In this document: positions 48,052 to 53,642 of the stretch, piece after piece
How positions within the stretch are numbered: the stretch's first letter is position 1
How the letters are laid out: each line of letters begins with the position of its first letter
From: Anaerolineae bacterium
GTDB taxonomy: Bacteria; Chloroflexota; Anaerolineae; B4-G1; SLSP01
Assembly (NCBI GenBank): GCA_035415725.1
Contig: DAOOGN010000001.1
Span: 77,382-141,381 of the forward strand
Reading direction: 5' to 3'
Length of the DNA stretch: 64,000 nucleotides
Notes under the pieces: model-generated
Told to the model about the DNA's origin: nothing
The model's database searches: none
The model's input: the letters and a program-made list of their open reading frames with translations, nothing else
Translations under genes and position numbers: made by a program

Positions 48052-49137
48052 ATGAAGATGAAACGTTGGCGTCTGTGGGGGTTGATGATCGCTTTAGCTT
48101 TGGCCATGGCGTGCCAGCCGGCGCAGAGGGGGGCCTTGCCTGCCCCTGTACCGAACGCGCCGGCGCGGGATAAATTGCGCCTTTTCTGGGTCAACAGCTA
48201 TGCCGGCGAAGATGTATGGTCCCAACAAGTACGAACAGGCGTTTTGGAGACATTGGCGCGTAGCGGCTATACGCTTGTAGAGGGCACATTGGAAATGGAG
48301 ACCTTTAATATGGAGGTACAGCAGATCCCTATGATTGACGTCGCTACGCCGGCAGCCAACCGGGCCGTGGAGAAGATTCAGGCTTCCCAACCCGATCTGG
48401 TGGTCGTCGTTGGCGATGTGGCCTCACGTGCTGTCATTCCCCGCTATCCCGATCGCAGCCTCCCCTTTGTTCTGTGCGGATTTGTCGGTGATCCGGCAGT
48501 GTATGGTCTGAATCTACCTAACGTCACCGGAGTTTTGGAGGCCTTGCATCCTGTGCAGACGGTGGCGATGGCGTATGCCTTTGTCGAAGATGCCCAGCAG
48601 TATATGATCCTCAGTGATGGCTCGGTAGCAGGTAAAGCTCGTGCCCTGTCTGCTTATAGTGTTTTAGGACAGAGTGAATACGGCGCCTCGGCGTCATTGT
48701 TTAGGATGGTAGAAACGTGGTCCCGTTGGCAAACGACGGTGTTGGAAGACGCACGCGCCGTGGACTTTATCCTCCTGGCGAGTTATCAGGGTGTGGTGGA
48801 TGATACCGGAGCGCTCGTCGATGAGAAAGAGGTTCTGGCCTGGATGCAGGCTAACTCGCCGGTGCCGGTTTTCGCGTTGTCCGACTTCGCCATTGTCAAT
48901 GGGGCGGTCGGGGGTCTGGTTTCGTATGGCTATGAAGAGGGTGTTTCGGTTGGAGAGATCGTGGTGCGGCTTGCCGCCGGCGAGTCGCCGTCCGATATCG
49001 AGATTCGTGGGCCGGAGCGCAACCTGCTGGCAGTCAATCTGGCGGCCGTGCATCATTGGAACTTGCGCATCCCTATCACATTCCCGCTGGCGGCGCGCAT
49101 CTATAGCACCTTGCCCGCCTCACAAGGAGGTCGTTAA
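48052..49137 (+). CDS. PF04392/COG2984-type ABC-transporter solute-binding protein (secreted or lipoprotein); orphan, no permease or ATPase nearby
   Basis: The signal peptide is MKMKRWRLWGLMIALALAMAC. Family-like motifs are LRLFWVNSYAGEDVW...LPFVLCGFVGDPAVYGLNLPNVTGVLEA, similar to the PGGNITGV region of the 33708 gene. Its stop overlaps the next start as TAATG. Confidence 0.8.
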   Translation: MKMKRWRLWGLMIALALAMACQPAQRGALPAPVPNAPARDKLRLFWVNSYAGEDVWSQQVRTGVLETLARSGYTLVEGTLEMETFNMEVQQIPMIDVATPAANRAVEKIQASQPDLVVVVGDVASRAVIPRYPDRSLPFVLCGFVGDPAVYGLNLPNVTGVLEALHPVQTVAMAYAFVEDAQQYMILSDGSVAGKARALSAYSVLGQSEYGASASLFRMVETWSRWQTTVLEDARAVDFILLASYQGVVDDTGALVDEKEVLAWMQANSPVPVFALSDFAIVNGAVGGLVSYGYEEGVSVGEIVVRLAAGESPSDIEIRGPERNLLAVNLAAVHHWNLRIPITFPLAARIYSTLPASQGGR

Positions 49138-52100: not shown

Positions 52101-53642
52101 GATACCCGTGAACATCCCAGTGTCAGCAGTCGGCGGTTGGCCGAGTTGGGACTGCTGTCGCGCATGGGGGTGCCGCTGCGCGTCGGTGAGGATGTGTTAG
52201 GGGCACTCCTGGTCGCCGGCACCGCCGTCAACCAGTTTAGCGAGCGTGAACTGAATATGCTGGAGTTTATGGCGACGCAAATTTCTTCGGCGATCCAGAA
52301 CGCCCTGCAATTCGGTCGCACGGAAGCGGCGTTGAGCGTGGTCCGCCGACAGGCGCGCTATCAGGCCAACGTCTCGCAGGCCGCGGCTCTGCTGACCGAG
52401 CGCGGCACCGAAGCGGTTTTCGATGTACTGCGTTTACTTGGTGAAGCCTCGGCGGCTCAAGGCGTTCTCTATCTGGAGTATCATGCGGCGGAAGATAATG
52501 TCGCCATGGAGGATGCGGTCGGAACCGTTGCCGGCGACTCATACTGGCAGTCCCGGGCAATGTGGATGGCAACGACGCTCCCCACCGACGGGGTTGACAC
52601 GGCGTTGCTCGATCACCTCTCTCTGGAGCGGATGCAGCCCTGGGCCGATCAACTCATCGGCAAACCCTACCTGACGCTCCAACCCGAGGCCCTCCCTGAC
52701 TCGGAGCGGGAACTGATGCAGGCGCTTGGTTTTAACACGCTGTTGGTGTTGACCGTGCGGGGCGAGGCCCTTTATCCTAATGTGATCCTGATAGGCCGCG
52801 CCGACGCTGAAGGGGCCTGGGTGGAAGACGAAATCGTTGCCATGCAGACGGCTGCGGCCACACTTTCTAACACCATTGCGCGTGAACGGGTCTTCCAGGA
52901 AGTTCAGACCTCGCGCACCGAGACTGAAGCCCTGTACCGTGGAAGCGCCGAGTTGAACCTGGCGCAATCTTACGACGGCATCCTGAACGTGTTGCGTACC
53001 CACACCGTCCTGGGGCAGGGCGCCTATCACATGACGTTGCAACTCTTTGACCATCCCTGGACGGATGAGAGCGAACCCCAGTACGCCGAAGTCGTGGCGC
53101 ACTGGACGACCACCGACAGGAGTATGCTGCGGGAGCGGGTATGGCTTGATGATTTCCCGGCCGCGCAGGAATGGGGCCGTCATCCCGGCATGATCGTCCT
53201 GGATGATGTGGAAAATAACCCGCTCTTGAGCCGTAAAAACCGCGCTCTGTTCTCCCGGGTATTCGGCGCCAAGACAGTGATTCTGGTGCCTCTGGTGGCC
53301 AGTGGTCAGCGGATCGGTTTTGTGCATGCGATGTATCCTCAATCCATGGCGTTCTCGGAACAGGAACGTCGCCGCCTGGAAAGCCTGACACAGCAGGCGG
53401 CCATCGCCACGCAGAACCGATTGCAACTGTTGACCATTGAAGCGCGGGTCAATCGGGAGCGGATGATCCGTGAAATCACCGAACGCATTCAGGCTGCACC
53501 GGATGTGCAAGGGGTGTTGCAAGCTGCCGTGCGCGAATTAGGGCGGGCCTTCGGGACGCCGCGCAACCGGATCCAGTTCCGCTCGCCCGGTGAATCGACC
53601 GGCACAGGAACTGATGGAGACGAAGAGAATGAGAGGGAATGA
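49137..53642 (+). CDS. TM-periplasmic sensor-TM-HAMP plus about six tandem GAF domains, sensory protein (1501 aa), no output domain
   Basis: TM1 is WRMILIIAGIPLLLLVPVFIYV. A periplasmic segment of about 150 aa follows. TM2 is ALLLVGIVGAAGLIALLYF. The HAMP region is EDEIGSVAQSFNAMASRLREMVAGLEQRIAERT. GAF1 reads ERFGFYHVGIFILDDAKMWAILRAASSEGGQRMLARGHRLQVGQTGVVGFVAGSGKPRIV...NPDLPATRSEMALPLLVENEVIGVLDVQS. Further GAF-like repeats follow. The tail is RVNRERMIREITERIQAAPDVQGVLQAAVRELGRAFGTPRNRIQF. Confidence 0.87.
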   Translation: MSQKGLSLRWRMILIIAGIPLLLLVPVFIYVGSQYRDAYRQAYWGKGDLITVQLQQTLETVAPYVETFADAPGLATLLRKAVEGSPEFDFIALVDNTGRVIEHSTPGFKGTTITELAGLDVAEPIERREVAAFGSVYLISRAVPMPGAGAPGSPTQQLYIVVGERAELVDPSMRALLLVGIVGAAGLIALLYFSTQRLVLQPLSRLAEGARIMGAGDLTHTISIEREDEIGSVAQSFNAMASRLREMVAGLEQRIAERTAALERRTLQLETISLVSKEAAQVRNVILLLETTVRAVSERFGFYHVGIFILDDAKMWAILRAASSEGGQRMLARGHRLQVGQTGVVGFVAGSGKPRIVFNVGEDAVWFNNPDLPATRSEMALPLLVENEVIGVLDVQSDVPHAFTDEDISTLQLLADQLAVALNNARALEQMESALAEVHALQVEYSRQGWARIAAQTRPLAYEYDRVDVNPVAPLPVPAELRDGRASRAQLMDGGVPVMMETLRAGDRVLGYLGLADSQHTWSAEELSLVESVGEQVALALENARLFEESQQSQRQQTLISNVLQVASNPDLSFEEVLAEIARILAQALNMAVGIYTFPVPNFPRVQPHAVLDPAGKRLPFPDEPLSLADEHFTFLRGLRRAELGPLSPLLGGVELTPDSQELLSPYTLGCVFYVPLGSGGSQRGFMALLQPQDNVLPLDSETRDLVQRLANQIEVVLDNLTLTEETQQRSEELRSLYNISLVLSELLEPTDVLSAIVQQGETLLEADGSEFFEYEAETDALILTLAPADGSMGQVGLRLQRGEGLAGEALDKQQTLFVEDEEAGDKRLPAPGGTRFHASMAVPLSGRFGPQGVLVLHAEEVAAFGEREVRLANLFAQQAAAALDNARLNKDAQRRAEEFSLLSQAGIDLLPIRDVEQLLARAADWARRVFNVPRVMIYLQDSATGHYLHGLSVDAAEHSWQEQERVMPTPGGLTETIIATHESVLVRDTREHPSVSSRRLAELGLLSRMGVPLRVGEDVLGALLVAGTAVNQFSERELNMLEFMATQISSAIQNALQFGRTEAALSVVRRQARYQANVSQAAALLTERGTEAVFDVLRLLGEASAAQGVLYLEYHAAEDNVAMEDAVGTVAGDSYWQSRAMWMATTLPTDGVDTALLDHLSLERMQPWADQLIGKPYLTLQPEALPDSERELMQALGFNTLLVLTVRGEALYPNVILIGRADAEGAWVEDEIVAMQTAAATLSNTIARERVFQEVQTSRTETEALYRGSAELNLAQSYDGILNVLRTHTVLGQGAYHMTLQLFDHPWTDESEPQYAEVVAHWTTTDRSMLRERVWLDDFPAAQEWGRHPGMIVLDDVENNPLLSRKNRALFSRVFGAKTVILVPLVASGQRIGFVHAMYPQSMAFSEQERRRLESLTQQAAIATQNRLQLLTIEARVNRERMIREITERIQAAPDVQGVLQAAVRELGRAFGTPRNRIQFRSPGESTGTGTDGDEENERE

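Follow-up and report, generated by a model that had tools for sequence, protein, structure and literature searches.

A PF04392 solute-binding lipoprotein as the likely partner of an adjacent multi-GAF sensor lacking an output domain in Anaerolineae

Sensing that depends on a solute-binding protein (SBP) is already known for chemoreceptors, histidine kinases, cyclic di-GMP enzymes and one Ser/Thr-kinase relay. Here, we describe a gene pair in a 64,000-nucleotide stretch of an Anaerolineae bacterium (GenBank GCA_035415725.1, contig DAOOGN010000001.1, positions 77,382 to 141,381; hereafter the window, whose numbering we use), in which an SBP gene, SBP2, directly precedes the gene of a 1501-residue membrane sensor. 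Comparative sequence data indicate that SBP2 is most likely a dedicated partner of this sensor rather than a transporter component. The pair lies in a tightly packed same-strand array of 24 genes (19-60920, about 60 kb), of which about 21 encode sensor-GAF proteins without an output domain and two encode PF04392 SBPs. A HAMP-GAF histidine kinase, truncated where the window begins, stands at one end of the array and a 2413-aa multi-GAF hybrid kinase at the other; related Anaerolineae loci share this organisation. Features and their positions are collected in Table 1.

SBP2 matched the Pfam family PF04392 with 36.3 bits over residues 104-338 (gathering cut-off 25.9), and a family profile built from 34 homologues matched the PDB entries 3lkv (E 6e-13) and 3lft (E 1e-6). 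Cys21, at the end of the signal peptide, is invariant in 34/34 aligned homologues and follows a basic n-region and a hydrophobic core, which argues for export by a lipoprotein signal. Alignment revealed two conserved motifs common to 3lkv and 3lft, NVTG (residues 157-160) and GAVGGL (284-289), together with many invariant Trp residues specific to the SBP2 homologues. These homologues form 51 clusters of 275-456 aa, all of them stand-alone proteins from Anaerolineae/Chloroflexota metagenome bins, and the two-lobe domain is full-length throughout the aligned set. The three PF04392 SBPs with solved structures have L-Trp, L-Tyr or L-Phe as ligand (PMC10443332), and by analogy with such structures the ligand of SBP2 would be an aromatic amino acid; against the NCBIfam TrpX equivalog SBP2 scored 23.3 bits, below the cut-off of 390.

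The sensor had been read, in a preliminary description made from the letters and their open reading frames (ORFs), as a Cache-type protein with the order transmembrane (TM) helix, periplasmic domain, TM helix and HAMP, followed by about six GAFs. A hydropathy scan and the Pfam HAMP match bear out this order, and the Cache label stands at the level of fold although not of Pfam membership, as residues 31-175 gave no significant Pfam Cache match (best dCache_1, E=0.22, 11 bits). We modelled residues 1-260 and 1054-1501 with AlphaFold. The N-terminal model (37 orthologues; mean predicted local distance difference test score, pLDDT, 89.6) consists of a long helix (8-64) running through TM1, a short helix, five strands, and TM2 leading into HAMP. 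Foldseek comparison with the PDB returned WalK (9a5d_A, E 1e-10), DctB, KinD and CitA at probability 1.0, CitA with a TM-score of 0.61 on the target; further WalK matches included 7dud, 5is1 and 4ywz, extracellular-domain structures and a WalK-YycH model. The model thus points to a single PDC/sCache-like module of 140 aa between the two TM helices, assigned by fold.

The GAF chain was likewise recognised correctly, and its predicted length rises to seven GAF-fold domains. Scanning by segment placed five GAFs at or above the Pfam threshold and gave no Pfam match for residues 1054-1258. In the C-terminal model (residues 1054-1501, pLDDT 85), two alpha/beta domains (1108-1221 and 1279-1400) are joined by long helices, and Foldseek aligned about 400-430 columns of this region to the tandem-GAF structures of Cph2, PDE2, PDE5, PDE6 and CyaB2. 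GAF1 is the most conserved segment of the sensor (mean p-distance 0.27) and is 40-48% identical by BLASTP to the first GAF of the other cluster receptors. Because TM, Cache-like, TM, HAMP, seven GAFs and tail together account for all 1501 residues, the predicted architecture leaves no space for an output domain. The same architecture recurs in about 90 clusters of sensor orthologues (38-81% identity, about 1480-1510 aa), none of which contains a kinase, GGDEF or other output domain; collecting them required the full-length query, as residues 1-280 gave three weak HAMP matches and no orthologues. By Pfam, HisKA and HATPase_c are absent from the 1501-aa protein and occur only in the next gene (53679-60920), which places the sensor outside the sensor-kinase family.

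Table 1. Features of the SBP2-sensor pair and of the surrounding gene cluster (window coordinates; residue numbers refer to the encoded protein).
Feature	Position	Strand	Description
SBP2 gene	48052..49137	+	361 aa; PF04392 (ABC_sub_bind) solute-binding lipoprotein
SBP2 lipoprotein-type signal peptide	48052..48114	+	residues 1-21, MKMKRWRLWGLMIALALAMAC, ends at Cys21
SBP2 type-I periplasmic-binding-protein fold region	48229..49083	+	residues 60-344, profile-to-PDB alignment
Shine-Dalgarno of sensor gene, AAGGAGG	49124..49130	+	within last SBP2 codons; 6-nt spacer to ATG
TAATG overlap, 1 nt	49135..49139	+	TAA 49135-49137, ATG 49137-49139
Sensor/transducer gene	49137..53642	+	1501 aa; no catalytic output domain
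TM helix 1	49173..49229	+	residues 13-31, hydropathy scan
Extracytoplasmic PDC/sCache-like domain	49230..49652	+	residues 32-172, AlphaFold and Foldseek; proposed SBP2 docking site
TM helix 2	49659..49715	+	residues 175-193, hydropathy scan and AlphaFold
HAMP	49725..49874	+	residues 197-246, Pfam PF00672, E 1e-14
GAF1	49986..50402	+	residues 284-422; canonical, clear Pfam match (287-422)
GAF2	50454..50765	+	residues ~440-543; divergent; partial Pfam GAF (~487-543), 25.7 bits, cut-off 22.4; own GAF hidden Markov model
GAF3	50856..51290	+	residues 574-718; divergent; full-length but sub-threshold Pfam GAF and GAF_3
GAF4	51381..51794	+	residues 749-886, clear Pfam match
GAF5	51879..52298	+	residues 915-1054, clear Pfam match
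GAF6	52458..52799	+	residues 1108-1221, fold only (AlphaFold, Foldseek)
GAF7	52971..53336	+	residues 1279-1400, AlphaFold/Foldseek; partial Pfam GAF_2 (~1351-1427), 33.7 bits
C-terminal tail module of sensor	53358..53576	+	residues 1408-1480
Upstream neighbour	46249..48042	+	597 aa; six predicted TM, GAF, degenerate GAF, C-terminal tail
Multi-GAF hybrid histidine kinase	53679..60920	+	2413 aa; HisKA, HATPase_c, two REC (Pfam); last cluster gene
dCache inputs	starts 13460, 18654, 34737		
MASE11 inputs	starts 1686, 3610, 31807		
Other polytopic membrane-domain inputs	starts 5365, 25824, 30043, 36898, 38665, 44772, 46249		
LacI-type Peripla_BP_1/3 inputs	7954-10035, 10165-13374, 15802-18657, 21499-25827, 27240-30125		N-terminal, no convincing TM, fused to GAFs and tail
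PAS input	start 40433		
Tail-module examples	53358-53576, 36714-36935, 33307-33528, 47806-48027		
Overlap junctions in window	1686, 15802, 18654, 21589, 25824, 30109, 36937, 40472, 44790, 49137		

The two ORFs, both on the plus strand, meet at cacAAGGAGGtcgtTAATGtca, where the overlap of the SBP2 stop with the sensor start, as first described, is plain in the sequence. The start itself also holds: the sensor N-terminus, MSxKGLSLRWR, is conserved in orthologues and GGAGG lies 5-6 nt ahead of the start in all loci, inside or just past the SBP ORF, which confirms ATG 49137 as the real one. In related loci, which we examined with 10-kb flanks and number L001 to L026, the 1-nt T(A/G)ATG overlap was found in 15/18 measured orthologous junctions (28-75% SBP identity) and also in L026; of the others, L015 overlaps by 8 nt, and in L023, L024 and also L017 the genes lie 10 nt apart. 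In the gap loci the SBP stop codon is merged with the Shine-Dalgarno sequence (TAGGAGG or TGAGGAGG). The Shine-Dalgarno stretch of the window codes for the conserved SBP2 C-terminus, ...QGG(R/Q), and the ending ...(Q/E)GG(Q/R) is kept even in homologues with a lengthened tail. As this GG motif persists while tail length varies, the conserved element is the Shine-Dalgarno nucleotides and not the peptide. Unlike this steady junction, the spacing on the other side of the SBP gene, towards its upstream neighbour, differs among 14 loci, from -4 to +79 nt.

The overlap had also been taken to imply stoichiometric co-production of the two proteins, and this part of the preliminary description is not borne out by the overlap. 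At least 10 of the 23 junctions of the window cluster (between 1686 and 53679) are stop/start overlaps with Shine-Dalgarno-supported starts, of -1, -4, -8, -11 or -17 nt, and some of them join unrelated sensors. A hidden RNA structure forcing strict coupling was considered and found no support, the junction RNA being no more structured than shuffled sequence (z = +1.5). The Shine-Dalgarno sequence is thus not sequestered and may recruit ribosomes independently of SBP2 translation; a strong Shine-Dalgarno sequence permits initiation without translation of the upstream gene, and synthesis ratios within operons are mainly set by the initiation rate of each gene. A sequence scan found no promoter-like or terminator-like site at the SBP2-sensor junction; terminator-like matches in the junction region numbered 13, against a shuffle mean of 6.6. 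The overlap indicates co-transcription and close translational linkage of the two genes. Overlaps being usual across this operon, it does not by itself prove dependence, partnership or 1:1 synthesis, given also the unstructured Shine-Dalgarno sequence and the 10-nt gaps in three or four loci. The case for partnership rests on comparative data instead.

An SBP gene lies directly upstream of the sensor in about 23 Anaerolineae/Chloroflexota loci with 28-75% SBP identity (L001-L003, L005-L013, L015-L020 and L023-L026), that is, in every locus for which downstream DNA was available. The sensors vary across loci in carrying four to seven GAFs, and those of L025 and L026 are shorter, at 960 or 1121 aa. 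Since the pairing is kept with these shorter proteins, it goes with the N-terminal sensing part of the receptor, whatever the number of GAFs. The sole sensor orthologue lacking an SBP gene within 10 kb is found in L022 (10001-14503, on an 819-kb contig). Its extracytoplasmic domain is enlarged by two insertions, of 5 aa and 13 aa, and no longer shows the conserved PYV and YRxAYREA motifs, and the N-terminus of this orthologue is 33% identical to the window sensor, against 47% for the whole protein. This sensor starts with GTG, and the six-TM GAF gene upstream of it is seemingly split into ORFs of 202 aa and 391 aa.

Sequence divergence of the SBP follows that of the sensor extracytoplasmic domain more closely than that of any other segment. 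Pearson and Spearman coefficients of the pairwise distances are both 0.965 for this domain, compared to Spearman values of 0.73-0.93 for HAMP, GAFs and tail, and a partial r of 0.79 is left when three GAF segments are controlled for. A further line of evidence comes from paralogues in L001 and L023 in which SBP and receptor are fused, one chain running from a TM helix (residues 11-29) through an SBP2-like PF04392 domain and a second TM helix (360-378) to GAF, degenerate GAF and tail. Their PF04392 domain matches SBP2 by BLASTP (E 1e-10 to 1e-11) and scores 31 bits in Pfam, which shows that SBP2-type domains are used as a covalent input of these receptors. Separately, L002 contains at 4847-8238 an SBP of the ANF_receptor/Peripla_BP_6 type (401 aa) directly upstream of a dCache-HAMP-GAF receptor, a second and independent pairing of an SBP with a Cache receptor in the same kind of cluster.

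The earlier proposal that this orphan SBP is the dedicated partner of the adjacent sensor is therefore upheld as most likely, on grounds other than the one first offered: synteny, the lack of nearby ATP-binding cassette (ABC) genes, co-variation and fusion speak for it, and the overlap by itself does not. One alternative is that SBP2 is an ordinary transport SBP that works with a permease and an ATPase from another part of the genome and sits in the cluster only for co-regulation or, in a softer form, that it serves both purposes, as MBP does with Tar and ChvE with VirA. Solved PF04392 members are indeed SBPs of ABC transporters for aromatic amino acids, the genome extends beyond the window, and SBPs that serve chemoreceptors commonly serve transporters too (PMC8050422). 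Against these considerations, no ORF combining Walker A and LSGGQ was found in the 64-kb window or within 10 kb of the gene in 24 related loci (497 kb; scan run without a positive control), and no ABC permease or ATPase Pfam family was found among window ORFs of at least 200 aa. The 34 homologues aligned from the 51 clusters share the lipoprotein signal and the GG C-terminus that encodes the Shine-Dalgarno sequence, the sensor lies downstream in the roughly 23 loci checked directly, and the SBP-sensor junction is fixed while the other junction of the SBP gene drifts. The score for the TrpX equivalog falls far under its cut-off, and SBPs of sensor kinases are typically encoded beside signalling genes (PMC8050422). 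A purely or partly transport-related SBP2 is accordingly quite unlikely. The gene of L021 (Maridesulfovibrio, 28% identity) was considered as a transporter-type positive control and turned out to be an orphan PF04392 gene instead; it (9755-10795) adjoins genes for a mandelate-racemase-like enzyme, a class IV aminotransferase and an FAD-dependent protein, with no ABC transporter genes beside it.

A different possibility is that SBP2 has given up small-molecule binding and works as a ligand-independent accessory lipoprotein, holding the sensor or adjusting it much as YycH and YycI do with WalK. WalK is the best fold match of the sensor N-terminal region, the WalK-YycH model included, the PF04392 match is weak and the many invariant Trp residues of SBP2 are family-specific; nonetheless, the PF04392-wide motifs NVTG and GA(V/I)GGL align with ligand-bound 3lkv and 3lft and all SBP2 homologues retain the two-lobe domain at full length, so we regard this as unlikely. 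Very unlikely, in our judgement, is an arrangement in which SBP2 really belongs with the six-TM GAF protein encoded upstream, or in which it is shared by several receptors. This neighbour is also conserved, its gene runs 1-4 nt into the SBP gene in 4/14 loci, and the divergence of its TM region correlates with that of the SBP (Pearson 0.94, Spearman 0.86). However, it has no extracytoplasmic domain, none of its loops being longer than about 15 aa; the distance between its gene and the SBP gene is not constant, and its correlation stays below that of the sensor extracytoplasmic domain. Moreover, L026 has a dCache-HAMP-GAF gene upstream of the SBP and yet retains the downstream sensor.

Taking SBP2 as a dedicated partner of the sensor, we propose a mechanism in which both proteins are made from one operon, SBP2 being translated immediately before the receptor. 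SBP2, with or without ligand, would dock on the single Cache-like extracytoplasmic domain, and the resulting conformational change would pass through TM2 and HAMP into the chain of seven GAF-fold domains and reach the helical tail of about 70 residues that closes nearly every sensor-GAF protein of the cluster. As the receptor has no enzymatic output, protein-protein contact would then hand the signal on, most plausibly to the hybrid histidine kinase 53679-60920. Docking on the Cache-like domain and relay through HAMP and GAFs to the tail are reasonably supported, whereas we infer the physical contact between SBP2 and sensor, and handover to the kinase is a conjecture drawn from gene order and the absent output domain. 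The complete path from docking to hybrid kinase nevertheless appears to us a probable account of the pair.

Several points weigh against this account. The kinase relay is drawn from gene order and the missing output domain, and the evidence that SBP2 binds the sensor is indirect. A common phylogeny makes all of the mirror-tree correlations high, and rates could change in parallel in two extracytoplasmic proteins that never meet. Stop/start overlaps are common throughout the cluster and not specific to this pair, and the SBP gene is conserved, and in the 4/14 loci overlapping, beside the upstream six-TM GAF gene as well. The ABC scan covered the window and 24 loci, so a distant transporter partner is possible, and with SBP2 a weak PF04392 member (36 bits), ligand binding is assumed.

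Beyond the pair, the cluster suggests a tentative generalisation, a kind of sensory array not described before, in which SBP2 and its sensor are one input among more than 20 output-less receptors that may converge on a single giant hybrid kinase via GAF/coiled-coil contacts. Among its inputs would be Cache-like domains, some with an SBP and some alone, MASE11, other polytopic membrane domains, cytoplasmic LacI-type domains and PAS, followed by a common 'transmitter' of GAF, degenerate GAF and tail. Within this scheme, the five LacI-type paralogues would sense small molecules in the cytoplasm and pass their signal into the shared system. A terminal multi-GAF hybrid kinase is present in 6/7 loci with visible downstream genes (L002, L022, L023, L024, L025 and L026); in L001 a giant downstream gene leaves the locus before any kinase domain is visible. 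The order at the cluster end is SBP, sensor, in some loci Methyltransf_19, and multi-GAF hybrid kinase.

The methyltransferase gene (Methyltransf_19, PF04672) lies between sensor and kinase in L002 (15132-15917), L023 (14572-15363) and L026 (12421-13212); it is absent from the window, where sensor and kinase are separated by 36 nt. Its placement recalls Bacillus cereus, in which the methyltransferase RsbM acts on the hybrid kinase RsbK.

The tail module shared by all sensor-GAF proteins is about 70 aa long and reads LESARLYEDTQRRAAREQ..EIT..IR.SLD.E.VL.TA..E....L.L....V.L, with a short acidic or proline-rich extension behind it. The AlphaFold model shows one long and one short helix and then an end that is disordered or strand-like. 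The module looks like a linker between GAFs joined to the opening helices and strand of a further GAF, which then breaks off. It closes 110/115 complete GAF ORFs in 24 related loci, and 4/5 exceptions are terminal hybrid kinases. The idea of a unique new domain had to be tempered, as the tail profile matches 13,756 representative proteins and many of these matches are internal linkers between GAFs, in thousands of multi-GAF proteins. Internal matches end near profile position 56, while in about 60 of the best 150 matched proteins the best match lies at most 46 aa from the C-terminus and reaches further into the profile. The tail is best described as the start of a GAF that terminates. A direct repeat of 214 nt (26941-27154 and 29821-30034; 77% identity, with an identical stretch of 33 residues) spans the 3' ends of the adjacent genes 25824-27191 and 27240-30125, which points to a recent event, either duplication or gene conversion, in the tail module.

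The other SBP gene of the array, SBP1 (33603-34727), has a listed start that is probably too far upstream: ATG 33708 is preceded by a GGGAGGA Shine-Dalgarno sequence, and the protein read from there has a canonical lipoprotein signal (...VVLGFLLSGC). SBP1 is a much stronger family member than SBP2 (111 bits for PF04392, 82 bits for the TrpX-like model), and its neighbour 34737-36953 has a Pfam dCache_1 domain. A descent of both SBPs from a recent duplication was rejected because BLASTP found no significant similarity between them. Past the cluster end at the hybrid kinase, the remaining 60921-64000 carries opposite-strand ORFs at 61679-62797 (weak PHP-domain match) and 63318-63950 (no Pfam match).

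If borne out, the pair would add PF04392 as a new SBP family that partners signalling, a family that is not among the 13 listed as receptor partners (PMC8050422), and Chloroflexota as a new phylum for SBP-dependent sensing. It would also add a new receptor class, composed of HAMP and multiple GAFs without output. Our literature searches, those for MASE11 included, returned no description of PF04392 in signalling or of such GAF-only clusters in Anaerolineae or Chloroflexi. The pair offers a concrete handle on a large uncharacterised class of GAF-only proteins. An SBP ligand would let a defined stimulus be traced to the adjacent hybrid kinase. Were the array reading true, the cluster would function much like a chemotaxis system in which many receptors report to one CheA, with GAF domains as its building blocks.

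Known systems resemble parts of this arrangement. TrpX and the PF04392 transporter SBPs of 3lft and 3lkv share with SBP2 the fold family, the NVTG and GAxxxL motifs and the lipoprotein-type anchor, whereas SBP2 has no nearby permease or ATPase and a purely sensory genomic context. As input modules, SBP folds also form the extracytoplasmic part of BvgS-type Venus flytrap kinases and of the fused paralogues in L001 and L023; unlike in these fused receptors, SBP2 in the window is encoded as a lipoprotein of its own, next to a receptor that retains a Cache-like domain. WalK, controlled by the membrane-anchored accessories YycH and YycI from the same operon, gives the best structural match for the TM-Cache-like-TM-HAMP region of the sensor, but its accessories lack the SBP fold of SBP2, and WalK, unlike the window sensor, is a kinase.

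Other parallels are found where a stand-alone SBP serves a receptor. In LuxP-LuxQ, TorT-TorS and NspS-MbaA a dedicated SBP from the same operon likewise lets the ligand be sensed indirectly, although LuxQ, TorS and MbaA use dCache-like or helical-bundle domains and kinase or GGDEF-EAL output, in contrast to the single Cache-like domain and absent enzymatic output described here. AioX-AioS of Agrobacterium, which responds to arsenite, and HptA-HptS of S. aureus likewise combine a stand-alone SBP with a neighbouring two-TM sensor and no adjacent transporter, and the extracytoplasmic domain of AioS, through which the signal passes, is sCache-like as in the window sensor (PMC8050422). AioS and HptS are histidine kinases, whereas the window receptor consists of HAMP and seven predicted GAFs with no kinase; AioX and HptA belong to the Phosphonate-bd and SBP_bac_11 families, SBP2 to PF04392. 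With a transducer that lacks output, the pair also resembles GlnH-GlnX-PknG of Mycobacterium tuberculosis, in which an SBP binds a non-catalytic membrane transducer that signals to a separate kinase (PMC8050422). There, GlnX is a four-helix bundle acting with a Ser/Thr kinase; here, a HAMP/GAF transducer would act with a candidate hybrid histidine kinase.

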